Positions 7,920 to 50,331 of a stretch of 64,000 nt of DNA are shown one piece after another. Position 1 is the first letter of the stretch; the number at the start of each line of letters is the position of its first letter. The notes beneath the pieces were generated by a model. That model was given only the letters and a program-made list of their open reading frames with translations, ran no database searches and was not told the origin of the DNA. Origin of the DNA: Candidatus Multivorans sp. Its GTDB lineage: Bacteria; Acidobacteriota; Thermoanaerobaculia; Multivoradales; Multivoraceae. The stretch covers positions 768,001-832,000 of the forward strand of contig OZ245033.1 in NCBI GenBank assembly GCA_965224025.1. The letters run 5' to 3'. A program made the position numbers and the translations under genes.

Positions 7920-8005
7920 GATGCCCGCGTTTCGTCCGTGCGCCCGATGACGGGTACACGGAGTGGTTCGCGGGTGGCGCGGATCGCGCCACCGCGGTTC
8001 CCAGG
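7920..8005. repeat. ~85-bp intergenic repeat, copy 1
   Basis: Near-identical inverted copy at 36700-36786. Contains the hairpin GGTGGCGCG-GAT-CGCGCCACC. Confidence 0.85.
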
Positions 8006-12051: not shown

Positions 12052-13539
12052 GTGATCAGACGCGTTTTCTTCGTGGCGGCGGTGCTGGGCGCCGCGCTCG
12101 GCTGTACCGAGGACCCGGCCGGCGACACCGCTGGCGGCAACGAGCAGAGGCCGCCCAACGTCGTCTTCATCCTCGCCGACGATCTCGGCTACGGCGACCT
12201 CGGCCTCTACGGGAGCACGATCATCGAGACTCCCCACATCGACGCCCTCGGTGCCGCCGGCGTGCGCTTTGCGGCCGGCTACGTCGCCGCCGCGGTCTGC
12301 AGCCCGTCCCGGGCCGGCCTGATGACCGGTCGCTATCCGCAGCGCCACGGCTACGAGTTCAACGCTTCGGGCCAGGACTACGGCCTGAACCTGGACGAGA
12401 CGACCCTGGCCGAGGTCATGCGCTCCGCCGGTTATGCGACCGGCGCCGTCGGCAAGTGGCAGCTCGGCTGGGGCGACGGCAAGCACCCCCTCGACCGCGG
12501 CTTCGACGAGTTCTTCGGCATGCAGAGCGGCTCGATCTACATCGAACCGTCTACCGAAGGAGTCGAGAACTGGAGTCCGCTGCCGCTGCCCGAGGTGCGC
12601 GGTCGTCCGATCTTTCGCGGCCGGGAAGTCGTTGAAGAGACCGAGTATCTGACCGAGGTCTTGACCCGCGAGGCACTCGACTTCATCGACCGGCACCACG
12701 ACCGGCCCTTCTTCCTCTACCTCGCCCACTACGCACCGCATACCCCGCTGCAGGCGACCGCGAAGTACCTCGACCGCTACCGGCACATCGAGGATCCGAG
12801 GGTCCGCATCTTCGCCGCCATGGTCTCGGCGGTCGACGACAGCGTCGGCGAGGTCAGGGCCCGGCTGCGGGAGCACGGCGTCGAGGACGACACCCTGATC
12901 GTCTTCCTCTCCGACAACGGTTGCGCCTTCTACCTCCAGGGCGGATGCACCAACGGTCCGCTCAGCGGCGGCAAGCGCTGGTTCTTCGAAGGCGGCATCC
13001 GGGTGCCCTTCCTGCTGAACTGGCCGGGAAAGGTGGAACCGAGCCAAGTCTACCGGCCGGCGGTGTCGTCGCTCGATCTGCTGCCCACGCTGGCGGCGGC
13101 GGCCGGCGCTTCGCTGCCCGAGAAGCCGCTCGACGGCGTCGATCTCCTTCCTTACCTTCGCGGCGAGGTCGACGGCGTTCCCCACGAGTTCCTGTTCTGG
13201 CGGGCCGGTCCGAACCGCGCCGTCCGCCGCGGCGACTGGAAGCTCTGGCAGGTCAACCGCGCCTCGGAGGAACAGGTCGCTTCGCTCCCGCTGCTTGGCG
13301 CTCTGTTCCCGGACTGGGAAGCGCCCCACGGGTCGCCGCTCGGCCAGTTGAACCGGCTGCACGACCTGGAGAACGATCTCGGCGAGCGGATCCCCGTCGC
13401 CGACAATGAGCAGGCGGTGCTCGAAGAGCTCAGGCGCGCCCTCGATGCCTGGGAGAGCGAACTCGTCGAGCCGCGGTGGTGGAGCAACCGGGGCACCGCC
13501 GGCATGGTCGACGACGAAGCGATCGAACTCATCTTCTGA
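12052..13539 (+). CDS. Arylsulfatase-family (formylglycine) sulfatase, exported
   Basis: PNVVFILADDLGYGD, CSPSRAGLMTGR, GKW and SDNG; signal peptide; AGGAGG RBS. Confidence 0.92.
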   Translation: MIRRVFFVAAVLGAALGCTEDPAGDTAGGNEQRPPNVVFILADDLGYGDLGLYGSTIIETPHIDALGAAGVRFAAGYVAAAVCSPSRAGLMTGRYPQRHGYEFNASGQDYGLNLDETTLAEVMRSAGYATGAVGKWQLGWGDGKHPLDRGFDEFFGMQSGSIYIEPSTEGVENWSPLPLPEVRGRPIFRGREVVEETEYLTEVLTREALDFIDRHHDRPFFLYLAHYAPHTPLQATAKYLDRYRHIEDPRVRIFAAMVSAVDDSVGEVRARLREHGVEDDTLIVFLSDNGCAFYLQGGCTNGPLSGGKRWFFEGGIRVPFLLNWPGKVEPSQVYRPAVSSLDLLPTLAAAAGASLPEKPLDGVDLLPYLRGEVDGVPHEFLFWRAGPNRAVRRGDWKLWQVNRASEEQVASLPLLGALFPDWEAPHGSPLGQLNRLHDLENDLGERIPVADNEQAVLEELRRALDAWESELVEPRWWSNRGTAGMVDDEAIELIF

Positions 13540-13565
13540 CTGGGTGCGCCGGCGTCCCCGCCGGC
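13540..13565 (-). repeat. REP-like palindromic repeat (GCCGGC-N5-6-GCCGGCGCACCCAG)
   Basis: Related copies at 37755-37780 and 42071-42096, a partial copy at 59676-59691, and the IS110 target site. Confidence 0.75.
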
Positions 13566-13766
13566 TGCCGCCGGAGGCGGCCAGGAAACGCGCGAGGCGT
13601 CAGCCTCGCTCCATGAGCCGCCGGAACATCAGTCGACCGGCGTTTGTTTACCTGCATGCGATCGCCGCCCCGCCGGCCCCTTGGCGTCGCCCCCGACCGG
13701 TTCTGAGGCTTGAGCCTCGCCCGATGTCCTTGCCGGGGCTCGCGGTGTTTCCTGCCCATGCCGACA

Positions 13767-13794
13767 GCACTCGGTAAGCCCTGTTGTCAAGCAT
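13767..13794. other. Putative recombination site, switch 1 left (11-6-11)
   Basis: GCACTCGGTAA-GCCCTG-TTGTCAAGCAT. The core is the reverse complement of the core at 14960-14965. The inner arm is identical to 48503-48513. Confidence 0.7.
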
Positions 13795-13848
13795 GGTCCG
13801 GCCTGGTTCGAGCCCGTCTTGAGGTAAACCGACCGACACCACGAGGTC

Positions 13849-14856
13849 TCACAGAAACGCCGCACCGGCGTGATCCCGGAACGCGTCCGCCTGCCGGATG
13901 TATCGGAGCACCATCTCCGCGTTCGTGTGCCTCGTGACCTCCATGATCTTGTCCAGCCGTGCCGAGTGGACGGCCGCGCTGGTCACGAAACCGGCTCGCA
14001 GGGAGTGGCCCGAGTAGTCGGCGGGATCCAGGCCGATTTCCCGCACGTAGCGCTTCACAAGTCGCGGGATGTCGGTCGGATGCAGGGCCCTGCCGCGCGG
14101 CCTTCCGCCGCGCCACATCGTCTGGAAAGCAGGTCCCTTGGTGATTCCGGACACGGCCAGCCAGCGCCGGAGCCGCTCGACCGGCCGGATGAACGCTCCC
14201 TCAGGGATCGCGACGCTCTGACCCTTTCCGAGCTGGTCCGTCTTCGAGCGACGGATGTGCAGGAGCATTCCCGCCGCTTCACCGGCGCCGTTCACGAACT
14301 CGACATCCTCCATCCGCAGTTGACAGATCTCCGATCGCCGTAGCGCTCCCGCGAAGCCCACCGCAATGATCGCCGCGTCACGTAAGGCGATCGTCCGGTT
14401 CTTTCTCTGAGCCGCCAGCTCGTCGCAGACCGAGAGGATCGCTGCGATCTCCTGCTCCCGGAGCGCCCTGACCTGCCTGGGCCGTGCATCCGTCAACCGC
14501 CCGAGCCCCCGCAGAACGCTCCTCACCGTCACGTTCCTCGCGGGCGATTCGAGGTTCCGGTCTCCGTAGTACCGATTGATCGCGGCCAGGCAGATCCTGA
14601 TCGTGCCCAACGCAAGCGGACGCTCGGCCCTTTTGCCGCCATTGGACGATCCCGGCGTCGCCGCCATCGCAACCAGGAACTCCGCAACGGTGGCAGGCGT
14701 CGCGCCCATCGGGTCGACTCGGCGCTGCTCGCAGAAAGCGGCAAACCGCCGCCAGCCGCTTCGATACGCCCTCCGTGTGTTCTCGGCGAGTGATGTCTCC
14801 AGAGCTTGCCCGACTGAGACTGCTGCAAGGGAATCGAGGTCCTTGTGAAGAGGCAT
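13849..14856 (-). CDS. Cre-like tyrosine recombinase (SAM-like N-domain plus catalytic domain), intact
   Basis: NTRRAY..W..F..FC, GALRRSE, SKTDQ, GHSLRAG, TRH and RYIR give the R-K-H-R-H-Y catalytic set. AAGGAG RBS. Confidence 0.92.
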   Translation of the reverse strand: MPLHKDLDSLAAVSVGQALETSLAENTRRAYRSGWRRFAAFCEQRRVDPMGATPATVAEFLVAMAATPGSSNGGKRAERPLALGTIRICLAAINRYYGDRNLESPARNVTVRSVLRGLGRLTDARPRQVRALREQEIAAILSVCDELAAQRKNRTIALRDAAIIAVGFAGALRRSEICQLRMEDVEFVNGAGEAAGMLLHIRRSKTDQLGKGQSVAIPEGAFIRPVERLRRWLAVSGITKGPAFQTMWRGGRPRGRALHPTDIPRLVKRYVREIGLDPADYSGHSLRAGFVTSAAVHSARLDKIMEVTRHTNAEMVLRYIRQADAFRDHAGAAFL

Positions 14857-14948
14857 CAGCAGTCGTCGTCTCCTTCCAGGGGCATCGGTTGGGTGTGTGT
14901 CCCTCTGCTCTTGGGGACCAGAGGCCCCTCGATCCGAGGGCCCGGACG

Positions 14949-14976
14949 ATCCTCCGTAACAGGGCTAGGGGAGGAT
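14949..14976. other. Putative recombination site, switch 1 right (11-6-11)
   Basis: ATCCTCCGTAA-CAGGGC-TAGGGGAGGAT. The arms are 8/11 complementary. Confidence 0.7.
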
Positions 14977-14982
14977 TATGGT
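14977..14982 (+). promoter_or_regulatory. -10 element (TATGGT) of a split promoter completed on inversion
   Basis: Would lie 18 bp from TTGACA after the segment inverts. Confidence 0.55.
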
Positions 14983-15142
14983 GGGTCCTATGCTCAACGA
15001 CACTGCGTCGTCGCTCTCGTACTGCGCTCTCGAACAACCGGTGCCGCTCATGCCCCGAGTCAGATTCACTTGACTGCATTGCGGCCCATCTCGGCGGTGC
15101 CGTGGACGCAGTCCGGCGCGAGGAGCACCGGCTTCTGCCACC

Positions 15143-15376
15143 ATGCCGAGCCTCGGCGTAGCGGCGAAGGGCTGGGAGAAGAGCAAGGAGATCTGCGTCC
15201 TTGGGCTGGCCGCGGACCTCAACCCTGAGGCGAGGAGCGGAGGGGACGAGTGCGTCGGGGCGCTGAACGAGATGCTGGCGGCGATCATGCCGGATCGCCC
15301 GGGTCTCGGCGCGTTGGAGTGGATCGTGGCGTCGGACTCAACCGACGCCAGAGACAGGGAGGACCGTTCAGAATGA
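15143..15376 (+). CDS. Short hypothetical protein resembling the N-terminus of the next ORF
   Basis: KGWEKSKEICVLGLAAD versus RGLETKKEIFVVGIAAD; ATGA overlap with the next gene. Confidence 0.4.
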   Translation: MPSLGVAAKGWEKSKEICVLGLAADLNPEARSGGDECVGALNEMLAAIMPDRPGLGALEWIVASDSTDARDREDRSE

Positions 15377-15873
15377 CAAGAGTCAAAGTCTGTCTACCGC
15401 GGGTAGCCATCACACACCGGGGCCTAGAAACGAAGAAGGAGATCTTCGTCGTCGGAATCGCTGCGGATGGAAGACACACTGACGTGAAGACGGTGTCACA
15501 GACCTACAAGGGAATTAGGCGCCATGACTCCCTGCCGCTCCATGGCGACGGGATCGTTCTTTACCCGATGCGAGCTGCGAATGGCGACATCGCCCTATCC
15601 TTTAGTGTTGTCGAGTCCGATAAGAAGCAACGCGAAGTGCTGACCGGGTTGGCAGACGCCGTGGACTCGTTCGACCCGACTTCGGGAAAGGTCGCGAAGC
15701 TGTTGGCGAAGCTACTCGGGAATCTGGGGGTCTTCGACGACGATGAGCTGTATACGTGGGAAGAGACTCTCTCACAAGAAGACAATTACCAAGTCGGTCC
15801 GGATGACCGCCTTGACACCGAAGTCGGCAACAAGAAAGTGAACTGCACATTGAGGATCTACGTGGAGCCCTGA
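15373..15873 (+). CDS. Hypothetical protein (lower-GC cargo)
   Basis: Globular-looking 166-aa ORF with a GGAGG RBS. Confidence 0.7.
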   Translation: MTRVKVCLPRVAITHRGLETKKEIFVVGIAADGRHTDVKTVSQTYKGIRRHDSLPLHGDGIVLYPMRAANGDIALSFSVVESDKKQREVLTGLADAVDSFDPTSGKVAKLLAKLLGNLGVFDDDELYTWEETLSQEDNYQVGPDDRLDTEVGNKKVNCTLRIYVEP

Positions 15874-16372
15874 TGTTCGTGTCGGAGTAGCCGTCGTCGA
15901 CCCCAGCGTCGCTGGGTGAGGCTCCGGCACGAGGCGTGACGGCTTGCCCGAGGCCGATCGAAGACTGTATTGGGGGAGGAGCACGGCCATGGCGAAGAGG
16001 ACTGAGCATGGATACTTGACGGACGATCAGGGTCATCCGTCGTCAATGCGGATGATGAGCATGCTCTCGCGACCGAGGAAGAAGGAACCAAGGCAAAGGC
16101 CAAAGGGCAAGCCACGAAAGAGACTGGCTAGCCCGGTCAGTGAGGAAAGAGGATTCTGGCAACGCTTGGCACGTGAGGGTCGAGTTGTCCGACCGGCAAG
16201 ACGACAAAGGAGCTCTTGGATGGCGACCACGGCGGCCGCAGTGCCGCGTCTTCGAGTGACGGAGAAGGGAGTTCAGGCGGCGACTCGAGTCTCGGAGTGC
16301 GGGGAATTCCCTGTTCGGAGCTGCGACGCACACTGGCCGTGCTCAGGCAGGCCGGCATCGCGGCGTCGGCTC

Positions 16373-19300
16373 GTGCTACGGCGGCAGCGGGGATGGACGA
16401 TCGTTGCTGTTGTAGCTGGTCTCTTCGTGTGGACCGGTCAGGCTGCGGCTCAGACCGCGCCGAAGGTGACGGGTGTTTCCTTCATGGGCAGTCCGGACAA
16501 CGACGATACTTATGGCCTGGGCGAGACGATTCAGGTGCTTGTCGAGTTTGACGAAGTGGTCACTCTGTCTTCCCTGCTGGTTCAGTTGGAATTGGTCATC
16601 GGCACGAGGACGAGGCAGGCCTCAGTCGCTTCTGGTACCGCCCGCTCTGGAGTAGCGTCCGTCCCATTTGAGTACTTGGTGCAGGCGGCGGATCTCGACG
16701 GCGACGGGATCAGCATTCCGGCCAACGCCCTTGACGGGACCATCACCGCGTCGACTCGCGAGGCCGCCGCCGCGGACCTGAGTCACGAGGCCGTCGCTCC
16801 AGACCCAAGCCGAAGGGTCGACGGGAGCATTGTCGTCACACCGAAGGTCACGAGCGTCACCATTGGCAGCAGGCCCCGGCGGGCCGGTCACGGCGGTGGT
16901 TTTCCGGTCTACGGCGATACTTACCAACTGGGCGAGGGGATCCAGGTGAACGTGGAGTTTGACAAACCCGTACGACTTACGGGCACACCTCAGGTGGCGC
17001 TTGTTATTGGTGGCCACACGAAGCGAACCTCCTACGCACGTAGCCTCAGCCGCGCTCCATCGACTGTTCTCTTCTACTACCTTGTGCAGCCTGGGGACCT
17101 GGACGCTAACGGGGTCGGGATTCCGGCGAACGCCCTGACCCTCAACGGGGGCACAATCACAATGGCAGGCCATGCGGCCACCGCCGCGGATCTGACCCAT
17201 GACGCGATCGCCAGCGAGCAAATGGTCGACGGAAGCGCGGCCGCCGCGCCACGAGTTCTCTATGGGCTGCAATATGGCTCTACGGGAAACCCGATCAATT
17301 TCGAGGCCTTCGGCCGCGGCGAGACGGTCCAAGTGTTGATTAACCTTGATCGTCGCGTAGAGGTCAGGGGCAATCCCCGAGTAGCACTTCAGATCGGTAC
17401 GAGGACGAGGCAGGCGAATTACCGCGAGACTTATGCTAGGTACGGCATCGTTATTCTCATCTTTGAGTACGTCGTGCAAGCGAAGGACATGGACAGCGAC
17501 GGGATCGGCTTTCCAGCGAACGCTGTGAGCGTCAACGGTGGAGCCATCACGCTTGAAGGCGATGCCACGGTTGCCGCCGATCTGACGCATGACGCTGTCG
17601 AGGTTCTCCTTGGTAACTCTTACAAGGTCGATGGAAGCACCGTTGGCACACCCAGAGTGGCCTGGGTTGCGCAAGACGGGTCGCCTAGTAGCGGTGGCTC
17701 CTACGGCCTCGGCGAGACGATCCATTCCCGAGCCTGTTTTCGTGGAGGAGTGCGGGTGTCGGGCAGGCCCCAACTGGCGCTTCAGGTCGGTGGGCGCACG
17801 AGGCAAGCCTCCTACGGAGGCTCCTCTTTCGACGCTTTAGACTGTGTCCACTACCAGTACCGGGTGCAGGCGGGGGATCTTGAAGAGGATAGCGTCAGAA
17901 TCCCAGCCAATGCCCTGACTCTCAACGGTGGTTCGATAGCCCTTACCGGTGACAGCTCAGTCGCCGCTGATCTGACTCATGACGCGGTCGTCCCCGGCGA
18001 TGGTCTCGACCGCAGGGTCGACGGACGTCATGTTGTCGCACCGAGGGTCACGAGTGTGTCGTTCACGGGCGATCCGGTTGGCGGCTACACGTATGGTGCA
18101 GGCGAGATGATTGGTGTGCGTGTCGCTCTTGACAAGGTCCTTGCGGTGAGCGGCGAGCCTCGACTCCAGATAACCGTAGGGGACCGGCTCAGGGAGGCCG
18201 CCTTCGCGAGGCAGGAACTCAGCGATTCGCTCCGTTACGATGACACCTTCCTTCTCCTCTTCGAGTACACGGTTCAGCCGGGCGACATGGACGCCGACGG
18301 GATCAGTATTGCGGCGAACAGTCTGAGCCTGAACGGCGGTTTGCTAACGCTCGAGGGTTCACCCGGCACCGCAGCCGACCTGTCCCACTCAGCCGTCAAC
18401 CCGGGCGAGACACGTCTGGTGGACGCCCCGGACACGGGGCCGGTCTTCAGCACGTCGATCGCCGGCCAGGTATGGGTGGTGAACGAGGCGGTGAGCCTGG
18501 AGCTGCCGGAGGCAGTGGGCGACGGGGATCTGACCTACAGCCTGTCTCCGGAGCTGCCGGCGGGGCTCTCGTTCGACGCGGAGACGCGGCTGCTCTCGGG
18601 GATGCCGATGGCGGTGGCGGACCTGATGGCGTTCGAGTACACGGTGACGGACGGCGACCCGGAAGACCCGGAGAGCGCGACGCTGAGGTTCTCGGTGAGC
18701 GTGATCCGGCAACCGCCGATGGAGGTGGGCGGCGAGTCCGCCGGCGACGACGCGGTCGAGGTGACGTGGCGTGGTCAATGGTCGGACGAGAGCCGCGGCC
18801 GTCTGGTGATCGAGGCTCGCAGTCCGACGACGGACTGGACGGTGGTGGGAACGGTGGACCCGTCGAGCGGCGAGTTCGTCGTGCGTGGTCTGGCGCCGGA
18901 AACGCCGTACACGTTCCGCCTGCGATTCGAGTCGACTGACGGTGTTGCGGCCAGGACCGCTTCGGCCCAGACGGCGCCTGAGTACTCGGAGGAGTTCAGT
19001 GTCACGACGGGGTCCTATACCGGTCCATGCCGGAGCGGCGGCAGGTACCTGTGCCTGCGGTCGGGCCGTTTCGAGTTGCGGGCGGACTGGACGAACCCGG
19101 ACCGGGCAGGCGACTTCGGCGTTGGCACGGCGGTGCCGGTGGACGTATCGGGCGAGTCGGGCCTGTTCTGGTTCTTCAGTCCGGCGAATGTCGAGCTGGT
19201 GACGAAGGTGCTGGACGGCAGCCGTTTGAACGGCCACTACTGGATGTTCTTCGGCGCGCTGTCGGACGTGGAGTACTGGCTGACGCTGCGTGACACGGCG

Positions 19301-19870
19301 GTAGGCGGCTCCCAGCGGACGTACCACAACCCGCCGAAGGAGATCTGCGGTCAGAGCGACACAAGGGCGTTCCCCGGGGATCTCGCCGCCATGTTGGGGT
19401 TGTCGTCGTCGACGGAGGAGCCCTCGGGTCTTGCGGGTCTTGAGCCGGTTCGCCTGTCGGCGGTGCCGCTCGATCTGAACACCGTGCCTCAGACGGATGA
19501 CGGCGCCGGTCAGTGCGAAGCGACGGCGAATCGGCTGTGCCTGCTGGGGAATCGGTTTGCGGTCGACGTGAGCTTCATCGATCCGAACATCAAGGATCCG
19601 GACGTGGACCCGGAGGGCGCCGCGACGGTGGCGTCGTCGTTGGGAACGCCGAACACGGGCTTCTTCTGGTTCTTCAACCAGGAGAACATCGAGCTCGCGG
19701 TGAAGGTGCTTGACGGTCGGGGGATCAACGGCAAGTTCTGGCTGCTTTACGGGGCGCTGTCGGACGTGGAGTACGAGATCACGGTGACGGACACGATGAC
19801 GAAGCAGTCGAAGATGTACCGCAAGGAAGCCGGGAGCATCTGCGGCGAGGTCGACACGGACGCCTTCTGA
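16373..19870 (+). CDS. Large secreted/surface protein: 5 Ig-like repeats, He_PIG-like, FN3-like and 2 acidobacterial C-terminal domains
   Basis: Signal ending AAAQ; five ~135-aa repeats (TYxxGE.I.V..FeY.VQ..D.D.DG..IPANAL.LNGG); LPAGLSFD; two FWFF..NxELxxKVLDG..GALSDVEY modules. The start is uncertain. Confidence 0.85.
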   Translation: MLRRQRGWTIVAVVAGLFVWTGQAAAQTAPKVTGVSFMGSPDNDDTYGLGETIQVLVEFDEVVTLSSLLVQLELVIGTRTRQASVASGTARSGVASVPFEYLVQAADLDGDGISIPANALDGTITASTREAAAADLSHEAVAPDPSRRVDGSIVVTPKVTSVTIGSRPRRAGHGGGFPVYGDTYQLGEGIQVNVEFDKPVRLTGTPQVALVIGGHTKRTSYARSLSRAPSTVLFYYLVQPGDLDANGVGIPANALTLNGGTITMAGHAATAADLTHDAIASEQMVDGSAAAAPRVLYGLQYGSTGNPINFEAFGRGETVQVLINLDRRVEVRGNPRVALQIGTRTRQANYRETYARYGIVILIFEYVVQAKDMDSDGIGFPANAVSVNGGAITLEGDATVAADLTHDAVEVLLGNSYKVDGSTVGTPRVAWVAQDGSPSSGGSYGLGETIHSRACFRGGVRVSGRPQLALQVGGRTRQASYGGSSFDALDCVHYQYRVQAGDLEEDSVRIPANALTLNGGSIALTGDSSVAADLTHDAVVPGDGLDRRVDGRHVVAPRVTSVSFTGDPVGGYTYGAGEMIGVRVALDKVLAVSGEPRLQITVGDRLREAAFARQELSDSLRYDDTFLLLFEYTVQPGDMDADGISIAANSLSLNGGLLTLEGSPGTAADLSHSAVNPGETRLVDAPDTGPVFSTSIAGQVWVVNEAVSLELPEAVGDGDLTYSLSPELPAGLSFDAETRLLSGMPMAVADLMAFEYTVTDGDPEDPESATLRFSVSVIRQPPMEVGGESAGDDAVEVTWRGQWSDESRGRLVIEARSPTTDWTVVGTVDPSSGEFVVRGLAPETPYTFRLRFESTDGVAARTASAQTAPEYSEEFSVTTGSYTGPCRSGGRYLCLRSGRFELRADWTNPDRAGDFGVGTAVPVDVSGESGLFWFFSPANVELVTKVLDGSRLNGHYWMFFGALSDVEYWLTLRDTAVGGSQRTYHNPPKEICGQSDTRAFPGDLAAMLGLSSSTEEPSGLAGLEPVRLSAVPLDLNTVPQTDDGAGQCEATANRLCLLGNRFAVDVSFIDPNIKDPDVDPEGAATVASSLGTPNTGFFWFFNQENIELAVKVLDGRGINGKFWLLYGALSDVEYEITVTDTMTKQSKMYRKEAGSICGEVDTDAF

Positions 19871-19899
19871 GGATCGCTCAAAGTGGTGGAGGGTGGCAG

Positions 19900-20907
19900 A
19901 TGCTTGACGGACCAATAGTCGATGTTGCGATCGGATTGATCTTCTTCTACGTGGTGCTGAGCCTGATCTGCAGCGCCGTTCAGGAACTCAGCGCCGTTCA
20001 GGAACTCGTCGCCAGCGTCTTCGGCCTTCGTTCCAGCAACCTCGGGAAGGGGATACACAATCTGCTGGGCGAGGAGTATGCGGACAAAGTCTACAAGCAC
20101 CCGCTGATCAGGCACCTCGCGAAGATCGGGAAGAAGCCTTCCTATGTGCGGCCTTCGATCTTCGCGGCGGCGTTGCTGGATGTGGTGGGCAGGCGCGAGG
20201 GGGAGAGTGGCGCGGCCGCGTTGAGCGCGGACGAGGTTCACGCGGCGCTCGACAAGATGGACGGTAAGGAGCCGGTCCGCGGCGTGCTGCTGGCCTTGTC
20301 GCGCGGAAGCGAGGAGTCCCTTGACGAGATGCGCGATGCCGTGGCCGATTGGTACGACGAGGCGATGGACCGCGTGGCGGGCTGGTACAAGCGGAGAGTG
20401 AAGTGGATTCTCCTGATCATCGCTGGCGTGGTTACCGTGGCGGTGAATGCGGACTCGCTTCGCATTGCGGAACAGCTGTGGTACGACGACGAACTCCGCG
20501 CGGCCGTTGTGGAGGCCGCCGAGCCGTACATCACGGAGTCCGTGAAGAAGGACCAAGCGTCCTCCGAAGGGGAGACCGCGAACGGCGGAGAGGACGGCAC
20601 CCCGCCGTTGAGCGAGACGCTGGAGACGCTCAGAGGCGACCTCGGGACCTTCCCCATCGGATATCCAGGGGGCTTCAATCTCTGTTGCATCACGCTGGAG
20701 ATGATCATCGGTTGGCTGCTGACGATCGGGGCGATCAGCCTCGGCGCGCCGTTCTGGTTCGACCTCCTCGGCAAGGTGTCGCATCTCCGGGGCTCCGGCA
20801 CCAGGGAGGCGGACCGAGCGAAGAAGCCCGGCCCGGCGCCTCCTGCCGTGCCCGCCGCTCCGAGAACGGAAGGGGGTGCCTCTAGGCCAGTCGGGGAAGG
20901 TGCCTGA
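19900..20907 (+). CDS. Conserved hypothetical membrane protein
   Basis: DVAIGLIFFY..LSL, WYKR and GWLLT..AISLGAPFWFDLL; several TM segments. Confidence 0.8.
   Translation: MLDGPIVDVAIGLIFFYVVLSLICSAVQELSAVQELVASVFGLRSSNLGKGIHNLLGEEYADKVYKHPLIRHLAKIGKKPSYVRPSIFAAALLDVVGRREGESGAAALSADEVHAALDKMDGKEPVRGVLLALSRGSEESLDEMRDAVADWYDEAMDRVAGWYKRRVKWILLIIAGVVTVAVNADSLRIAEQLWYDDELRAAVVEAAEPYITESVKKDQASSEGETANGGEDGTPPLSETLETLRGDLGTFPIGYPGGFNLCCITLEMIIGWLLTIGAISLGAPFWFDLLGKVSHLRGSGTREADRAKKPGPAPPAVPAAPRTEGGASRPVGEGA
19971..20006 (+). repeat. Perfect 18-bp tandem duplication, in frame (SAVQEL x2)
   Basis: CAGCGCCGTTCAGGAACT occurs twice in tandem. Confidence 0.95.
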
Positions 20908-23006
20908 TGAAGAAGATCATCCTCTTGTCCGACGGTACCGGACAAGGCGCCGCAAAGCAGCACAAGACGAACGTCTGGCGCCTCCACCGGGCCCTGGACC
21001 TGCACCAGGACCAAAGTAAAGATGACCAGAGCGCTTCCCGCGATGACGGCACCGGTGCCGACGCCGACCAGATCGCCTTCTACGACGACGGCGTTGGCTC
21101 GCAGGCGTTTCTTCCCCTCAAGATTCTCGGCGGCGCGTTCGGCTGGGGCATCAAGTACAACGTCATCGAGCTCTACAAGGCCCTTTGCCGGACGTACGAG
21201 AAGGGGGACAGGATCTACCTGTTCGGCTACAGCCGGGGCGCATTCACGGTCCGCATGCTGGCTGGGTTGATCGCCGACAGGGGCCTTTGCACGGCGGTCG
21301 CCGACGAGAAGGAGTTTCACAAGGCCGCCCGGAAGCAGTTCGAGGCCTACCGCTCCAAGCGCGGCAGGGGACTCCTGACGCGGCCGTTTCGGCGCGGTTT
21401 CGCCGCAAGCGCTCCCGAGTGTGCGACGCGGCCTGAGATCGAGTTCATCGGCGTCTGGGACACGGTCGAAGCGTACGGCTTTCCGATCGATGAGATGTCC
21501 TCGATCTGGGACTGGCTTGTCTACCCCCTCAAGTTCGTCGACAAGAAGTTGTCATGCAAGGTCGTGCGCGCCTGCCACGCCTTGGCGATAGACGAGGAGC
21601 GGCTGTCGTTTCATCCGGTGCTCTTCGAGGAGAAGAAGAAGAAGGAGAAGGAGGAGGAGGAAGAGGAGAAGACGCCGAGAATCGAGCAGGTGTGGTTTGC
21701 CGGCGTTCACAACGACGTTGGCGGTGGCTATCCGGAGGAGGATCTCTCGCTAGTGCCGCTCGACTGGATGATCTACAAGGTCGAAGACCGTGACGAAGGC
21801 TGCGATAAGAACCCGGGCGGCCTTCGCTTCCATGAGCACGTTCGCAGAGGCATTCGGAAGCGCAGCGACTGGCACGGCAAGCAGCACGACAATCGCTCCG
21901 GGCTGGGCGCCTTCTACCGGTACAAGCCGCGCGACATCGAGGACCTCAGCCTGAAGTGTGGAATCACCAGGCCCAAGGTTCACCACGGCGTCCGCGAGCG
22001 CATCAAGCGGAAAGTCACGCCCTATGCGCCGACCTCGCTGCCGCGCGGTTGCGAGGTGGTCTCGACCCGCTCCGAGTTGGACGAGGCTGAGGCGGTTCTC
22101 GAGTTTGGCGAGGGGGCGATGGTGGCGGCTCTGGACACGGTCTTCTGGCGCCGCTGGCTCTACTTCGCGATGCAGTGGGCGACGATTGTGGCCCCGTTCG
22201 TCTTCTACCTCACATCGTGGTGGCGACCCGAGGTCTTCTTGCGGGACGGGCAGGCATGGCTTGTGGCTGCCGCTCTCGGCGGGCTCGTCGTGCTCAAGAA
22301 GACCGCTCCACGGGCCACGTTGGCGCGGGCGGGGCTGGCCTGGGCCGAACTGAAGTACGGCGATGCACCGGACCTCCGGCCGCATCCGAGCCTGACCGGG
22401 CGCTTCAGGAAGTTCCTGAAGGATCGGCCCTGGGTGGAGAAGGTCAGGAGGGGCCTCGTCGTGGCGGTCCTGGTCGCGGGGGCTCTGGGAGTCGTCAGCG
22501 CCGGGCTGAGTCGCGCGTCGTTCTTCGTCCAGTCGTGTTGCGAGTCGTTGTGCCTGCCCACCCAAGAACCGGCGTTGCTGACCGGCGAGGAACCGTTCTC
22601 TTTCTCGATCGACAATCCGTGCCATGCCACCGGATTCAAGTTGGAGCGGGGAACGCACTATCGCTTCGAGGTGGCGCGAACGAAGTGGCATGACGGCAGG
22701 CATCCGGCGACCGCCGACGGCTTCTCTCGCCCGAGGTCTAGCTGGGCGCTCCTGCCGTGGGTCCCCTACCGCCGTCATGTCGCTGAACCGTGGTTGAAGC
22801 TGATGGGCCGGGTGGGCGCCGGAGGAGAAGCGTTCGCGATCGGCTCGGGACCCCTCAGGTACGAAGCGAAGTCGGACGGGGAACTCTTCCTCTATGTGAA
22901 CGACGCCGTTCTCGGCCTGTCGGGAGACGGCCGGACGTTGCCCTACCGCTGGTCAGGGGGCAGGAACGTGGGGACGGCGATCGTCAGGGTCAGGCCCGTG
23001 GAGTGA
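20907..23006 (+). CDS. DUF2235 (Tle1-like) alpha/beta hydrolase with TM segments and a C-terminal beta domain
   Basis: DGT..TNV, YDDGVG, FGYSRGA, GVWDTV, HALAIDE and QVWFAGVH.DVGGG. Confidence 0.9.
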   Translation: MKKIILLSDGTGQGAAKQHKTNVWRLHRALDLHQDQSKDDQSASRDDGTGADADQIAFYDDGVGSQAFLPLKILGGAFGWGIKYNVIELYKALCRTYEKGDRIYLFGYSRGAFTVRMLAGLIADRGLCTAVADEKEFHKAARKQFEAYRSKRGRGLLTRPFRRGFAASAPECATRPEIEFIGVWDTVEAYGFPIDEMSSIWDWLVYPLKFVDKKLSCKVVRACHALAIDEERLSFHPVLFEEKKKKEKEEEEEEKTPRIEQVWFAGVHNDVGGGYPEEDLSLVPLDWMIYKVEDRDEGCDKNPGGLRFHEHVRRGIRKRSDWHGKQHDNRSGLGAFYRYKPRDIEDLSLKCGITRPKVHHGVRERIKRKVTPYAPTSLPRGCEVVSTRSELDEAEAVLEFGEGAMVAALDTVFWRRWLYFAMQWATIVAPFVFYLTSWWRPEVFLRDGQAWLVAAALGGLVVLKKTAPRATLARAGLAWAELKYGDAPDLRPHPSLTGRFRKFLKDRPWVEKVRRGLVVAVLVAGALGVVSAGLSRASFFVQSCCESLCLPTQEPALLTGEEPFSFSIDNPCHATGFKLERGTHYRFEVARTKWHDGRHPATADGFSRPRSSWALLPWVPYRRHVAEPWLKLMGRVGAGGEAFAIGSGPLRYEAKSDGELFLYVNDAVLGLSGDGRTLPYRWSGGRNVGTAIVRVRPVE

Positions 23007-23042
23007 ACGGGGCTGGGTGGATCAGCCGCGAGGTGCTTCCGT

Positions 23043-23369
23043 TCAACTCAGAGCAAGGGCGATGATGCCGCTTGTTGTCAGCGCCATGGCGGCGAGCGTT
23101 GTCGCCGCCATCCACCTGATCGTCCTGAACTCTCGGCGTAGCTTGCGCATCTCGTCGACAGTCTCCCGGTCGATGCCCTCGCGCTGGACCCGTACCTCCT
23201 GCCGTATGGCATGGGCCCGGAGTTCCGCGATGCTCTGGCAGAGGTCGTTGCGGAGGTTCGCCATCTCACGCGTGAGCGAACTCTCCACGAAAGCAAGATC
23301 CCGCTTGGTTGCGGGCACTCTCTGACCAGCGCCCATCATTTCGATCGCTCGCCTTCGCCTGACCTCCAT
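23043..23369 (-). CDS. DUF1640/CCDC90-like coiled-coil protein with C-terminal TM (short or degenerate)
   Basis: ATKRDL..coiled coil..IRWM followed by a hydrophobic tail; paralog of the neighbouring gene. Confidence 0.55.
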   Translation of the reverse strand: MEVRRRRAIEMMGAGQRVPATKRDLAFVESSLTREMANLRNDLCQSIAELRAHAIRQEVRVQREGIDRETVDEMRKLRREFRTIRWMAATTLAAMALTTSGIIALALS

Positions 23370-23539
23370 CGGGCTGCTCCTTCAAGCCTTCGCTTTGCTC
23401 CACCGGGTCACGGTGCAGCGTCAACAGCCGTGTGGGTCGGGGCGGGCCGCACACGATACGGAGGAGGCTATCACCGGTGACCGCGCTTCCGGCTTCGGGT
23501 TCGGGGGAGTCCGTAGCGCCTCAAGTGCCGGGGTTAGGC

Positions 23540-24079
23540 TCAGCGCAGAGCAAGCGCGATAATGCTGCCGACCATCGGCACCATCATTGCGAGCACGGTG
23601 CCGAACATCCACTTGAGCGCCCTCAGCTCGCTCCTCATCTCGGCCCGCAGCCCGTTCATCTCGCCCCGCAGCTCCCCCGTCAGTCCGTCTATCTGCCCCG
23701 CGATCTCCTGACGGAAGCTCTCGAAGCGGTCTCGGACCTCCTGACGTAGGGCCTCCATCGCCTTCTCGAGGGCCTCGATTCGGGCTGTGTTCTTCGCTAC
23801 GGTCGTCGCGAGGTCGCTCAGTTCGGCGCGGACTTCGGCGATGTCCTGCTTGAGTTCGGTTCGCACATCGGCGATGTCCTGTTTCAGCGCGCCTTCGAAC
23901 GCGGCGATGTCCTGTTTCAGCGCGCCTTGGGCCGTAACGACATCCTGCTTCGTCGCCAGCGCTTCGTGACTGTCGCTGATCATGTGGAGAAGTGCCTCTG
24001 CCTGCGCCCGGTCGAAGCCGGCTTCTTCAAGCCGTCGTCTTGAACCTTCGGCTTGGGATTCTACCGCGTAGCGTTCCAT
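23540..24079 (-). CDS. DUF1640/CCDC90-like coiled-coil protein
   Basis: RLEEAGF..AQAEAL..LATKQD, LKQDIA repeats and LKWM plus a TM anchor. Confidence 0.8.
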   Translation of the reverse strand: MERYAVESQAEGSRRRLEEAGFDRAQAEALLHMISDSHEALATKQDVVTAQGALKQDIAAFEGALKQDIADVRTELKQDIAEVRAELSDLATTVAKNTARIEALEKAMEALRQEVRDRFESFRQEIAGQIDGLTGELRGEMNGLRAEMRSELRALKWMFGTVLAMMVPMVGSIIALALR

Positions 24080-24234
24080 TCCTGACTCTCCTTGACGATT
24101 GTGTCCCGTGAGCCGTGTGCGGCGAGCTCTCGGGACCGGTTCGGCGTCGGGCCTGCGCGCACTGGGGGCAGTGACAGGCCTGTCTGTGGACCAAGACGGA
24201 TTTCGCGCGCGCGAGCCGGGTAGCCGAAGGCCGC

Positions 24235-25248
24235 CTACTCGAATTCTCGATCCTCTTTGCGAACGCGCCGCCCCGCCGGGGTCAGGCGATAGCGCTGGTT
24301 CCTCGCGCTCGGAGCATCGGGCCGCGTCATCTCGATCAGGCCTGCCTGCAGTGCGGGCCTGAGGTATCCCTGGCGCAGCCACTTCCGGTCGCGCAGGCGC
24401 AAGGCAGCAAGCACTTCGCGCGTGGACATCTCTCCCGTCATTGCCTGCAGGAGCCGCTGGACCTGGGGGGTAACCTGGGGGGTTCGTTGGGGGGTGGCCT
24501 CCCGCGCGGCGCCAAGGATCGCTTCCAGCATGAAGCGTATGAACGGCGTGCTCTCGCCCGCCTCGGAACTTCGCTCGATCGCCTCGTAGTAATCGCTTTG
24601 GCGGGAGCGGACAACGCTCTCAACCGGAACATGGGCAAACAGCGGCTTCCAGCGCGTGAGGATCAGCGTCTGCCAGAGACGCCCAAGCCGGCCATTGCCG
24701 TCTTCGAACGGATGGATGAACTCGAACTCGTAGTGGAAGACCGAACTTGCGATCAGCGGATGCTCCCGCGTCCCACCCAACCAGGCGAGGAGCTCCGCCG
24801 TCAGGCGTGGCACTCGTTTGGCGGGTGGGCCGATGTGATGGACCTCGTTGGGGCCGAGCACGCCGACCTGGCCGGTGCGGTAGCGGCCCGGCGCATCCAG
24901 GAGGCCGGCCATCAACACCTGGTGGGCCGCCAGCAGATCGTCCTCGCTCGACGGTTCCCAGCCGTCGCTCAGGTCGTAGGCCGAGATCGCGTTGCGCACT
25001 TCCTGAACATCCCTGAGTGGTCCGACAACGCGCCTGCCCTCGAGGATTGCCGAGACCTGCTCCTCGGACAGGGCGTTGCCTTCGATGGCGACGGAACCGT
25101 GAACCGTACGAACGCGGGCCTCGCGCCGCAGTCTGAAGTCCATACCGGGACTGGCGGCTTCGGCCTGGCCGATCGCCTCGCCGATCCGTTCCACCAGAGA
25201 AAGGCTCTCGGGCGTGATCGAGTAGGGCGGCGTCGCGGCTGCGGTCAT
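24235..25248 (-). CDS. Fic-family protein with C-terminal winged HTH
   Basis: HPFEDGNGRLGR, SVAIEGN and C-terminal YLRPAL..GLIE..P..PS..QRYRLT. Confidence 0.92.
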   Translation of the reverse strand: MTAAATPPYSITPESLSLVERIGEAIGQAEAASPGMDFRLRREARVRTVHGSVAIEGNALSEEQVSAILEGRRVVGPLRDVQEVRNAISAYDLSDGWEPSSEDDLLAAHQVLMAGLLDAPGRYRTGQVGVLGPNEVHHIGPPAKRVPRLTAELLAWLGGTREHPLIASSVFHYEFEFIHPFEDGNGRLGRLWQTLILTRWKPLFAHVPVESVVRSRQSDYYEAIERSSEAGESTPFIRFMLEAILGAAREATPQRTPQVTPQVQRLLQAMTGEMSTREVLAALRLRDRKWLRQGYLRPALQAGLIEMTRPDAPSARNQRYRLTPAGRRVRKEDREFE

Positions 25249-25273
25249 GTCCGGGACTCTTGCACAGGCCGGG

Positions 25274-26635
25274 CTAGCGCTCGCCGAGGGGCGGGAACAT
25301 GGACGGCGGCCGGTCGACGTCGATTCGCCCGATGTTCGCCCACGGCACGTACTCGGCGCTCTCACCGCCACCGGTGAAAACAAGCATGCCGGCGTTCGTC
25401 GCGCCGAGATCGCCGGTGCACTCGAGTTGCAGGATCTCGCCGTTGTGGAGCGTTACTCCGGCGCGTCGTCCGGCGGCGCACGCCTCACGGTCGAGAGGCG
25501 CAATCGAGGCGACCAGGCCGAAGGGGATCATGTAGTCCACGCCGCCGGATGGCGCGTCGAGCGTCTCGGTCGTTTCGCTCTCGTCGAGGTCGAAGGCCAG
25601 CCGGCCGGCAAGGCGGCGACCGTCGTGGGTGGTGACGGTGCCTGAGAGCGGCAGCCCGGGCGGGAAATCGTCGTAGCCGGGTCCGGTGCCGGCGGGGCTG
25701 AAGTCGAGGCGCTCGAAGGCCTCCCAGGAGACCAGCACCCGGCCGTAGCGCCGGTCGTCGACGTAGACGCCGCGATTGCCGCGCCCGACGGCGCGGGAGC
25801 CGGAGAGCACGAACTCGCGGCCGTCGTGCAGGGTCACCAGCGCGCTGTCGGCCGACCCCCGCGCAATGGTGCGAATTGCGTCGAACGGCAGACTGAGCTC
25901 GCCGCCGGCGGTCCGGCCCTGAAGCTCGTCGGCGCCGACGCTGGACTGCCGGTCCCACTGGATGAAGCCGGTGAAGCTCCCGTATGCGGTGCGTACCGTG
26001 CCGTGCAGCCGGTCCGGAACCGTCCCCAGGTCGGCGGTCGGGAGGAGCTCGATGACGCGGATCCGACGTTCGCCGAGGTCCACGACGCCGTGCTGGTCGT
26101 CCCACACGCGGACACCGTCGGCGAAGTCGTCGGCATCGAAGCGGTCGAGGACGAACTCGGTCCCGCTCTTGAGCGTCACCACGAGCTCGCGTCCGCTCGG
26201 CTCGATCCGTCTGATGTCGCCGAAGCGCGCCATGAACGGCCGGCCGAGGTTGAGCCGGCTCTTGCGCCGGGCGATCTCGACGCCGAGGACGGTGACCGGC
26301 CGGCTCTCAGTCAACCGCTCGGGCGGCACGTCCCCGGCCCAGGGGTTCTCCTCCTTGAAACCGTTGAAGTAGTCGCCCCAGAACGCCTCCTCGTCGCCGC
26401 CGAAGCGCAGTCTGCCTTCGCAGGCGGTGCCGCCGTGCGTCTTGACGCGTCCGTAGAGAAAGCCCTTGTCGGCGTCCGCGGCCGGCGGGTTCGGGCGGGG
26501 AATCGCGGGCGAGACGGTGACGTCAACGTTGACGTCCACGTCTCGCAGCAGACGGGCCGCGACGAGGCCGAGAGCCGCGAGAACGGCGAACAGCAAGAGC
26601 GCGGCGGTACCCCCTGCGATTCCGGCTCTCGTCAT
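25274..26635 (-). CDS. Hypothetical exported protein with internal beta repeats
   Basis: N-terminal TM; repeated LxGTVxT..G...G.L..D..E units. Confidence 0.75.
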   Translation of the reverse strand: MTRAGIAGGTAALLLFAVLAALGLVAARLLRDVDVNVDVTVSPAIPRPNPPAADADKGFLYGRVKTHGGTACEGRLRFGGDEEAFWGDYFNGFKEENPWAGDVPPERLTESRPVTVLGVEIARRKSRLNLGRPFMARFGDIRRIEPSGRELVVTLKSGTEFVLDRFDADDFADGVRVWDDQHGVVDLGERRIRVIELLPTADLGTVPDRLHGTVRTAYGSFTGFIQWDRQSSVGADELQGRTAGGELSLPFDAIRTIARGSADSALVTLHDGREFVLSGSRAVGRGNRGVYVDDRRYGRVLVSWEAFERLDFSPAGTGPGYDDFPPGLPLSGTVTTHDGRRLAGRLAFDLDESETTETLDAPSGGVDYMIPFGLVASIAPLDREACAAGRRAGVTLHNGEILQLECTGDLGATNAGMLVFTGGGESAEYVPWANIGRIDVDRPPSMFPPLGER

Positions 26636-36699: not shown

Positions 36700-36786
36700 C
36701 CTGGGAACCCGGGTGGCGCGATCCGCGCCACCCGCGAACCACTCCGTGCGCCCGTCATCGAGGTGCACGGATGAAACGCGGGCGTC
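36700..36786. repeat. ~85-bp intergenic repeat, copy 2
   Basis: Inverted copy of 7920-8005, lying between convergent genes. Confidence 0.85.
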
Positions 36787-48485: not shown

Positions 48486-48513
48486 ACGCTCGACAATCGC
48501 GGTTGTCAAGCAT
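48486..48513. other. Putative recombination site, switch 2 left (11-6-11)
   Basis: ACGCTCGACAA-TCGCGG-TTGTCAAGCAT. The arms are 9/11 complementary. Confidence 0.75.
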
Positions 48514-48569
48514 CCTTGACGTGCGCGCGGCACCACGCGAATCCTGGTGTGGCGACACCAGGCTGCGGC

Positions 48570-49586
48570 TCACAGGAAGGCGTCGCCGGCGTGATCCTCG
48601 AAGGCGTCCGCCAGCCGAATGTAGCGCAGCACCATGCCGGCGCTCGCGTGCCGAGTGACGTCCATGATCTTGTCCAGACGGGCGCCGTGGGCGGCGGCGC
48701 TGGTGACGAACCCGGCCCGCAGCGAGTGCCCCGAGTAGTCGGCCGGGTCGAGACCGATGGCCTGCACGCAGCGCTTCACGACACGTGCCACTTCGGTGGG
48801 ATGCAGCGCCTTCCCTCGCGGGCGTCCGCCCCGCCAGAGGCTCTGAAAGGCGGGGCCGTCCGTGTTTCCGGCTACGCTCAGCCAGCGCCGCATCCGCTCC
48901 ACCGGCCGAATGCTTGAACCCTCCGGGACCGCGATTCTCTGGCCCCTGCCTGGCTGGTCCGTCTTCGATCGCCGGATATGCAGGAACATGCCTCCCGGTT
49001 CATCGGTTCTACCCAGGAACTCGATGTCGGCCACCCGCAGGCCGCAAATCTCCGAACGCCTGAGCGCGCCCCGCGAAGCCGACCGCGACGACCGCCGCGT
49101 CCCGGATCGCCAGCGCTCGGCGTTCCCTCCGCGCGGCAAGCCGGTCACAGTAGGAGAGGATCGCTCTGATCTCACCTTCGCGAAGTGCCTTCACACGCCG
49201 CGGCGGCCCGCCGGCCAGTCGCCCGAGGCCCCGAAGAACGCTCCTCACCGTCTCGTGACGGGCCGGGGAGCCGAGGCTGCTCTCCCTGTACTTGCGGTTG
49301 ATCGCGGCCAGACAGATCTTGATCGTGCTGGGCGCCAGCGGCCCGCCTGTTTCATGTCCACACGCCGTGGGCCGGGCCCCGACGCCATCGCGACCAGGAA
49401 CTCCGCCACGTTCTCGGGCGTGACGGCCATCGGATCGAGCTGTCTCTCCTCGCAGTAGGCGGCGAACCGCCGCCAGCCGTTGCGGTACGCCATGCGCGTG
49501 TTCTCCGCCAGCGAGGTTCGCAGCGCGTCGGCGACGGAAACTTCAGTGGTCGGATCGTCGCGTTCAGGTTCGCCGTGGAAGGGCAT
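48570..49586 (-). pseudogene. Cre-like tyrosine recombinase paralog with two compensating frameshifts
   Basis: Collinear with 13849-14856 (SLAENTR.AY, ALRRSE, SKTDQ, GHSLRAG, LRYIR). Shifts near 49345 and 49070, with a stop at 49245. Confidence 0.88.
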
Positions 49587-49674
49587 CGAGAACGTCTCCT
49601 TGTGCGGGGCATCGGTTCATCGTGCTTCCTCTGCTGTCAAGTCACGCGAGAGCGGTTCACCGGGCGGCCGGAGC

Positions 49675-49702
49675 ACGCTCTGTAACCGCGATTGCCGGCG
49701 TT
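49675..49702. other. Putative recombination site, switch 2 right (11-6-11)
   Basis: ACGCTCTGTAA-CCGCGA-TTGCCGGCGTT. The core is the reverse complement of TCGCGG at 48497-48502. Confidence 0.7.
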
Positions 49703-49707
49703 AGTGT
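49702..49707 (+). promoter_or_regulatory. -10 element (TAGTGT) of a split promoter completed on inversion
   Basis: Would lie 17 bp from TTGACA after inversion. Confidence 0.55.
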
Positions 49708-49959: not shown

Positions 49960-50271
49960 ATGTCCAGAAGACCACTATCGACGACGAAGCTGCTAACGCT
50001 GGTGGCATTGGCCGCCCTGTCGCTTCTCACTTGCTCGGGGATCGACTACAATATCAGCTATGCGCACGGCTACGGAAACACCGAAGCTGCGGCGTGTGAG
50101 CGTGCCCACGAGAACGCCGATGTCTTCGCGGGAAGGTGTCAGTTGGAACCCTGCCGGTACAGGTCCGAGGATGTCATTCCGGACGATATGGACGACTGGG
50201 AAGACTGCAACAAACGTCTGCCCTGTTACCGAGCGACAATCGTCATTGACTGTCCCGATTCGAGTTACTGA
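49960..50271 (+). CDS. Small Cys-rich secreted protein or lipoprotein
   Basis: Signal KLLTLVALAALSLLTC followed by six further Cys; GAGG RBS. Confidence 0.65.
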   Translation: MSRRPLSTTKLLTLVALAALSLLTCSGIDYNISYAHGYGNTEAAACERAHENADVFAGRCQLEPCRYRSEDVIPDDMDDWEDCNKRLPCYRATIVIDCPDSSY

Positions 50272-50331
50272 GTTCGGTGCACAATGCAGGACCTTGCCCG
50301 GAAGCACACATCGGCGCGCAGGAGAAACAGG

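Follow-up and report, generated by a model that had tools for sequence, protein, structure and literature searches.

In a 64,000 nucleotide (nt) stretch of Candidatus Multivorans sp. (contig OZ245033.1, positions 768,001 to 832,000; hereafter the window, to the whole of which all coordinates refer) an intact Cre-like tyrosine recombinase gene lies between two short inverted sites. Gene and sites together probably form a one-gene invertible switch, in which the recombinase would assemble a split promoter by inverting its own gene. This reading is carried by the sites themselves, by the covariation of their cores among relatives, by the inversion of orthologous loci at those cores, by the conservation and spacing of two hexamers and by the promoter consensus of the genome, all of which are read directly in the sequences; from these we infer that the assembled promoter would fire. 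The switch is row L001 of the module table, other L-numbers are loci from this or related genomes, and X-numbers are sequencing runs.

In the proposed mechanism, the 335 amino acid recombinase would bind four related 11 nt arms, making up two sites with identical inverted 6 nt cores, and would be the catalyst that inverts the 1.19 kb segment carrying its own gene. In the ON state TTGACA, then 18 nt consisting of one base, the core, and arm B, and then TAnnGT would make the standard σ70-type promoter of this genome, facing the genes on the B side. In the OFF state, which is that of the window, the other inner arm would occupy the -35 position, where TCCGTA matches TTGACA at 2/6 positions. Switching would be frequent enough for phase variation, and the differing cores would keep paralogous switches from recombining with one another.

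Sites and recombinase

The left 28 nt site (13767-13794) is GCACTCGGTAA-GCCCTG-TTGTCAAGCAT and the right 28 nt site (14949-14976) is ATCCTCCGTAA-CAGGGC-TAGGGGAGGAT, both read directly from the sequence. On the left, outer arm A (13767-13777), which stays fixed when the segment inverts and has the consensus TTAyCGAGCGy outward from the core over 32 modules, is followed by the crossover core GCCCTG (13778-13783) and by inner arm 2 (13784-13794, minus strand) at the 3' end of the recombinase gene, which holds the proposed -35 hexamer TTGACA at 13785-13790. At the 5' end of the gene, inner arm 1 (14949-14959), which fills the -35 position at present, is followed by the core CAGGGC (14960-14965) and by the fixed outer arm B (14966-14976, plus strand; consensus TAGnGGAGCAG over the 32 modules), which with the core would form the promoter spacer. 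The fixed -10-like hexamer TATGGT (14977-14982, plus strand) is outside the segment and faces the cargo genes.

The initial annotation had described both sites, their exactly reverse-complementary cores, the minus-strand TTGACA (TGTCAA at 13785-13790), the external TATGGT and an intact recombinase gene between the sites, and the letters of the window agree with it throughout. Inverting the segment virtually gives the predicted TTGACA-N18-TATGGT, in the present orientation no TAnnnT is found 16-18 nt after TTGACA, and its description of the switch as currently OFF is consistent with the orientation of the segment. The 11-6-11 geometry that it gave to the sites stands in part. The stretch that varies and covaries is indeed 6 nt, with an almost invariant A at one border and either TT or TA at the opposite one, while the 11 nt arm boundaries are an interpretation built on these variable 6 nt and the cleavage spacing is putative.

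The inverted repeat that contains the cores (13777-13801 / 14942-14966) is 25 nt long and 76% complementary, with a perfect part of 9 nt, and is the longest among 64 inverted pairs in 13400-15400. By itself a 9 nt perfect repeat would be weak evidence; its significance is supplied by the relatives of the locus.

The recombinase gene (13849-14856, minus strand) matches Pfam PF00589 at 59.2 bits (cut-off 27.1, E 5.7e-16), and its best match of solved structure is Cre (7rhz_B, E 2.9e-11, residues 33-325 aligned with Cre 47-330). Of 19 PDB matches the first 17 are Cre chains, and XerC-like and XerD chains have far lower scores. The motifs LRRSE, RRSKT, GHSLRAG, RHTN, and LRYIR of the recombinase align with LRIAE, GRTKT, GHSARVG, GWTN, and MNYIR of Cre, which we take to hold the catalytic residues of Cre (Arg, Lys, His-x-x-Arg, His/Trp, and Tyr); the recombinase has His at the place of Trp315 of Cre, and the Arg, Lys, His-x-x-Arg, and Tyr motifs align. 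Other identities were considered. A serine DNA invertase (Hin/Gin/Cin) was set aside, PF00589 being the sole Pfam match, as were an integron integrase (NCBIfam TIGR02249, 16.6 bits against a cut-off of 265) and a XerC/XerD/XerA dimer resolvase (NCBIfam, 38.6-53 bits against cut-offs of 220-335). Given the matches to Cre chains and the sub-threshold Xer and integron integrase scores, the label Cre-like, already used in the initial annotation, is therefore a fair one.

Between the gene and inner arm 1 is a leader (14857-14948, minus strand) with a conserved AAGGAGA ribosome-binding site, found in both the sequence and the alignment, and no TAnnnT was seen in it. A hairpin noticed there by eye was rejected (z = -0.04, with 90/200 shuffles folding as well). 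In the fold of the leader alignment there are only 4 invariant pairs, formed by CTCC with the ribosome-binding site, with zero covariation, and there was no Rfam match on 13400-16000 at E up to 1.

Core matching and inversion among relatives

Matches to the recombinase (E ≤1e-30) are present in 28 of the 36 other genomes searched in the genus, with up to six per genome, and in one of 24 genomes searched from other genera of the order. The named records with relatives are metagenome-assembled genomes (MAGs) titled Candidatus Multivorans, Thermoanaerobaculia, Holophagales or Acidobacteriota, and copies of about 50% identity are found in MAGs of Gammaproteobacteria, Dehalococcoidia, Gemmatimonadota, Latescibacterota, Opitutales, and others. 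After deduplication there were 88 near-full-length copies, 54 of them at ≥57% identity, and 49 of these had ≥450 nt on each side.

The arm CTTGACAA is located ≤400 nt downstream of the gene in 30 of these 49 copies, and in 25 of the 30 the exact reverse complement of the adjoining 6-mer, in an A..T context, is found ≤450 nt upstream, where the chance of such a partner with uniform bases is approximately 0.007 per locus. A search that allowed one mismatch returned 20 sites, at all of which CTTGACAA was exact; none of 33 copies below 57% identity has this arm. In a wider scan 32 modules with 22 distinct cores were mapped, 29 OFF and 3 ON (L013, L017, and L078), to which can be added an ON paralog of this genome with an imperfect core. 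Between two and four types of Watson-Crick pair occur across the modules at every one of the six positions of the core. When cores were paired across modules, a mean of 85/168 positions were complementary, with a maximum of 110 in 2000 shuffles; the 168/168 seen within modules is a product of selecting matched cores, and because of this the 25/30 is the fair count of core matching. The initial annotation had expected homologs to keep inverted core-matched sites with covarying cores, and both counts, of copies and of cores, bear this out. A metagenome scan returned 10 loci, none with a clean module.

Within the genome itself there are paralogs of 82% identity at C1:2286615 and 62% at C1:453163, and a frame-shifted copy in the window (~48573-49556). 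C1:4017129-4017350 holds a fragment that is 66% identical over 74 residues, and a distant copy, of 34% identity, is located at C1:1280457-1281005. A common layout is shared by 4/4 loci, this switch among them, in which the outer arm, a 6 nt core, and TTAC(G/A)GAG are upstream of the gene, and GCTTGACAA, the reverse complement of the core, and an outer arm are downstream. This switch has the core GCCCTG, the broken copy TCGCGG, and the 62% copy GTCGGT; in the 82% copy the core is again GCCCTG, and its partner is imperfect. The homology of the four loci is limited to the gene with approximately 110 nt upstream and 17 nt downstream, and the neighbouring genes are unrelated. In the 82% paralog the TTGACA end abuts a B-type arm, giving TTGACA-N18-TACTGT approximately 165 nt before a secreted-protein gene; because this composite is assembled there, the paralog is naturally ON relative to the locus in the window.

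That inversion occurs in nature is seen in three ortholog pairs from different genomes, in which the flanks are conserved, the segment is inverted relative to them, and the breakpoints are at the cores. Between L043 and L042 the segment is 87.7% identical and collinear, and the A flank (91.4% over 2788 nt) and B-side pieces of 44 nt and 828 nt (88-91%) are reversed. L078 and L077 share a collinear segment of 86.3% identity between reversed flanks, which match at 93.7% over 3830 nt on the A side and at 97.7% over 171 nt on the B side, and between L045 and L044 the A flank (89.2% over 3944 nt) is reversed and the segment (83.7%) is collinear. All three pairs show a reciprocal swap of arms at the core. 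With the core GCCGTG, L013 joins the A arm to inner arm 1 and inner arm 2 to the B arm, and L014 joins the B arm to inner arm 1 and inner arm 2 to the A arm. Read from the aligned sequences, such a reciprocal exchange is the trace that would be expected of conservative site-specific inversion. The inversion part of the initial annotation is thus upheld by orthologous loci that occur in either orientation and whose exchange at the cores is precise.

In four comparisons (L077/L078, L042/L043, L044/L045, and L002/L015) identity is lower in the segment (79.5-88%) than in the flanks (89-98%), which suggests faster evolution of the segment or exchange among paralogous recombinase genes.

Some loci depart from the simple module. 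Larger segments of 2.5-3.4 kb with the same kind of site (core GGGGTG) are present at L024, L038, L060, L068, and L115, some of which hold or adjoin two tandem recombinase genes; at L068 there are two candidate partner sites for one TTGACA site, an arrangement that would be shufflon-like. At L044 (3790-3992) the 3' end of an IS3-like transposase, as judged by eye, replaces the upstream site of an OFF module, and this switch is presumably locked. The ON paralog (G000:C1:2286615-2287700; L002, L009 5616-6720) has the downstream core CAGGCT, or CAGG-C minus one base, and with its unmatched cores may be locked ON; among its orthologs the cores are matched in L045 and a site is destroyed in L044.

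In a strict search of the distant homologs, inverted A-N6-TT cores with plausible arms were found beside the gene in L085, L086, and L098. In the gammaproteobacterial MAG homologs (approximately 52% identity; L085 3700-5300, and also L086 and L098) the cores are GGCACT / AGTGCC and the arms are related, without a TTGACA arm. In L085 the recombinase gene is between two divergent TonB-dependent receptor genes, the first 233 nt of which are identical inverted repeats (40 nt in L086), an arrangement that looks like a toggle between the two receptor genes.

The promoter reading and its alternatives

With the spacing measured from the actual or would-be position of TTGACA, TAnnGT is found on one outer flank only in 32/32 modules, at 18 nt in 30 of them and at 17 nt in the other 2; the hexamer is TAACGT in 17 modules and TAGCGT in 6. 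There is no TAnnnT at 16-18 nt on the A flank in any of the 32. This is as the initial annotation had proposed in expecting an external TAnnnT in homologs. Counted over the whole genome, TTGACA-N-TAnnnT peaks at N=17 and N=18, each with 22 occurrences, compared with 6 at N=16 and 0-8 at each of the remaining spacings between N 8 and 29, and the -10 hexamers of the N17/18 set are often TAnnGT. Because of this peak at N=17/18, the composite assembled by inversion has the form of the organism's own spacing-constrained promoter. In addition, the TTGACA arm is invariant in all modules and the three other arms vary at most positions, a pattern that fits a double constraint on this arm.

Several observations weigh against the switch as proposed. 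There is no exact core partner in 5 of the 30 copies that have CTTGACAA, among which one has an imperfect core, one has lost its upstream site to an IS3-like insertion, and one has an altered base before the core; in 19 of the 49 close copies CTTGACAA is absent within 400 nt, several of these being in or beside 2.5-3.4 kb segments bounded by like sites. The module counts are not independent, since matched cores were required and many modules come from related genomes. Evidence from within samples consists of assembled contigs, which drop rare variants. Those from X3 and from X1/X2, which probably are the source runs, pass both junctions unbroken, and no second orientation is seen in them. In favour of switching, run X5, from a relative of approximately 93% identity, has a 1204 nt contig that spans exactly 13777-14966 and 51 nt contigs over each junction; if the Logan word length is 31, a branch at a shared 9 nt repeat would give unitigs of 51 nt. 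This break in the assembly graph at the repeats gives only a hint of switching within the population, strain mixture being another possible explanation. The runs X3-X23 hold small shares of the stretch, the share being 0.08 in the sole RNA run, X23, which is labelled as a sponge metagenome; several of the related MAG series may come from marine sponges. A scan for consensus promoters and terminators returned no promoter-like site in 13300-15700, and nothing was called around the naturally ON paralog, where the scan is blank because TACTGT matches TATAAT at 3/6 positions and the scan demands 4/6 in the second hexamer. Nor was a σ70-like promoter of the recombinase gene itself found in the leader, in either the sequence or the alignment.

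It is in the output of the inversion that the strongest alternative differs. TTGACA and TAnnGT could be conserved not as promoter elements but as protein-binding determinants, for the recombinase or an accessory protein, in which case the inversion would be real and would set the direction of recombinase transcription and of read-through into the one or the other flank, or serve another purpose. The blank scan at the ON paralog, the match of the -10-like hexamer to TATAAT at only 3-4/6 positions, and the failure to find a recombinase promoter inside the segment would all fit this, as would L085 and L086, where the gene lies between inverted cores, and between two TonB-dependent receptor genes, without a TTGACA arm. 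Such a reading has to account, however, for a TTGACA that is exact in every module when the other three arms tolerate variation, for a TAnnGT at 17-18 nt on one flank of 32/32 modules, and for the strong enrichment of the same composite at the same spacing across the genome, and it is considered unlikely.

The split-promoter switch must also be set against mobility, since the locus is 227 nt inside the left edge of an 11.8 kb island that is missing from at least five relatives. The recombinase might be the integrase or mobility enzyme of this island, or of a small selfish element, with att-like sites and an incidental inversion. A multi-copy family with homologs of approximately 50% identity in MAGs of many phyla would suit such an element, and so would segments that diverge faster than their flanks (86% vs 94-98% in L077/L078). 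Against this, modules are at the same chromosomal position in different species with only the orientation differing, neither the island and its cargo nor the rest of the window has a third site sharing this core, and the right edge of the island has no repeat of the site. The cores are, moreover, inverted and not direct, and because they are inverted, recombination between the sites cannot excise the segment. A mobility role accordingly seems improbable. As for a chance match beside an ordinary integrase gene, to which the 9 nt of perfect complementarity at this one locus might have pointed, it is contradicted by the matched but differing cores of 25/30 loci and by the inversion in three ortholog pairs, and can be given almost no credence.

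Genomic setting and known systems

The switch and its cargo belong to an accessory island of approximately 11.8 kb (13540-25305), which is inserted between two convergent conserved genes. One is a sulfatase gene whose last base is 13539, the other a gene on the minus strand (25274-26635). In L132, L134, L136, L137, and L138, all of them related genomes, the homology reaches 13539-13545, and the sulfatase gene runs almost straight into the homolog of the 25274-26635 gene; in L138 homology continues over 13539-13612 and resumes at 25302-25320. The GC content falls to 0.61-0.67 across 14-24 kb. At the edges of the island there is no direct repeat, no tRNA, and no copy of the sites. In the sister genome (L049/L131) the module is 92.6% identical, and collinearity stops at 14983, the base after the -10-like hexamer, beyond which the cargo is a different mosaic.

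The cargo (15143-23006) has two small open reading frames (ORFs; 15143-15376 and 15250-15873), a 1308 amino acid He_PIG/fn3 protein (15944-19870), a 335 amino acid membrane-like protein (19900-20907), and a 699 amino acid Tle1-like DUF2235 protein (20907-23006), all on the plus strand, and the island has two further genes on the minus strand, one for a coiled-coil protein (23540-24382) and one with a Fic domain (24235-25383). For the function of the cargo there was no match in PADLOC (8 proteins) or NCBIfam (6 proteins) and no Pfam match for most B-side ORFs, and an Atlas search with the 335 amino acid cargo protein returned only clusters of "hypothetical protein". Pieces of the cargo (15139-15335 and 19879-20879) recur at 86-90% identity, in another order, behind modules L045 and L049, and in run X3 an insertion of 442 letters is found precisely at 15138/15139; from these the cargo seems to be a mosaic whose pieces have been reshuffled, 15139 being one of its boundaries.

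Just past the sulfatase stop is a short GC-rich palindromic element (13538-13584), taken as a REP-type (repetitive extragenic palindromic) dispersed repeat because contig depth there is 5-15x that of its surroundings and many contigs end in it; several copies are present at the empty site of L138. Another dispersed repeat, approximately 80-95 nt long and of 83-98% identity, is found at 7922-8000 and 36705-36783, as well as ≤12 kb from all four recombinase paralogs and in relatives.

The first B-side gene at seven other modules, two of them in this genome, belongs to one uncharacterised secreted family (L009 6879-8207; L010 13585-14724, minus strand; L056, L060, L062, L111, and L021). Its members are approximately 30% identical and have no Pfam match; common to them are a signal peptide, four Cys that do not vary, the motifs GGF, GGWYWIND, and SGRxGIL, and an LVPDNPFP tail, and the middle of the protein is hypervariable. 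Phase variation usually shows itself by just such a variable secreted family behind a switch.

A second module, OFF, is also within the window (48486-49707, minus strand; row L004). Its left site has the core TCGCGG (48486-48513) and its right site the core CCGCGA (49675-49701), as read in the sequence, and the -10-like TAGTGT (49702-49707) is 17 nt from where TTGACA would land. The recombinase gene of this module (48573-49556, minus strand) is broken by frame shifts into three pieces in three frames, and the module is followed by a small Cys-rich ORF with a signal-peptide-like start (49960-50272). When the window was scanned with a matrix of the arms, partly circular as the matrix was built from these same arms, just four sites were found, two per module, with the next score far lower. 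A shufflon of the Rci type, which requires more than two sites, was rejected on the two per module that the arm matrix gives.

Compared with Cre/loxP of phage P1, the recombinase is alike in size and in its two domains, and its sites, too, place between two arms a short asymmetric core, the orientation of which decides what recombination yields. It differs in that loxP is 13-8-13 with two identical arms, whereas here there is a variable 6 nt core with non-identical arms of approximately 11 nt, and in that the enzyme's own gene lies between the sites, which are inverted; the system here appears to serve gene regulation, as against the plasmid dimer resolution or circularisation of Cre. The fimS element (FimB/FimE) and the invertons of Bacteroides and Clostridioides likewise combine short inverted repeats and a tyrosine recombinase with orientation control of surface or secreted proteins. 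In E. coli fimS and those invertons the whole promoter is inside a small segment and the recombinase genes are outside it. Here inverted repeats also flank a segment with promoter sequence, but the segment is the recombinase gene, the -35 half alone is inside it and mobile, the -10 is fixed outside, and the core is in the spacer.

FLP/FRT of the yeast 2-micron plasmid, in which the FRT sites are in 599 bp repeats and inversion serves copy-number amplification, also has a tyrosine recombinase gene between inverted copies of its own site, without promoter assembly. In the circular intermediates of IS911 and IS30, a -35 and a -10 from separate DNA ends are joined by recombination; these are the work of DDE transposases and drive the transposase gene, whereas here a reversible inversion would drive host-side cargo. 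Hin/hix of Salmonella has its recombinase gene in its own invertible segment, which carries a complete promoter inside, and differs from the tyrosine family protein described here. According to PMC3798978, Hin is a serine invertase that needs an enhancer and Fis. That a recombinase is occasionally inside its own invertible segment is stated, with Hin as example, in part of PMC5903667, and a section of PMC9881135 treats the arrangement as known. Given the Hin precedent, self-inversion is therefore not new in kind, and what is unusual is the split promoter and the core-diversified family. In the type I hsdS invertons of S. pneumoniae a tyrosine recombinase (PsrA/CreX) is in or beside the inverted segments, according to PMC7096588 and PMC7672463; those systems reshuffle coding sequence with several repeat pairs, unlike the two sites and promoter half seen here.

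The initial annotation did not recognise the architecture as described. For the split promoter this holds, in that no account of a promoter split across a crossover site, with its -35 in a binding arm, was found in a literature search of mostly open full texts. For the recombinase inside its own segment it does not, this being already known. The same search found no description of a Cre-like invertase or of a core-diversified multi-copy family in Acidobacteriota.

It is possible, and put forward only tentatively, that these loci represent a portable family of one-gene promoter switches with core barcodes, giving combinatorial phase variation of a secreted family and of islands in uncultured Acidobacteriota, with modules in other phyla toggling genes. 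Near-identical arms would then let the switches share recombinases in trans, while the cores would prevent cross-recombination, and the self-inverting modules of other phyla would toggle alternative genes, such as the two TonB-dependent receptors. The finding of 22 cores in 32 modules suggests a natural orthogonality set by the core alone. With the binding arm in this reading doubling as the -35 element, bound recombinase would occlude the promoter that it assembles.

Most of what is known of phase variation by DNA inversion comes from gut and pathogenic bacteria, in which a whole promoter flips. The design proposed here would be more economical, the invertible unit being the recombinase gene, the binding arm the -35, and the core part of the spacer, with the -10 staying in the chromosome. 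If true, it would offer compact Cre-like recombinase/site pairs with a built-in transcriptional output for genetic circuits. It would also extend programmed phase variation to the uncultured Acidobacteriota, with a mechanism tied to an uncharacterised family of secreted proteins.

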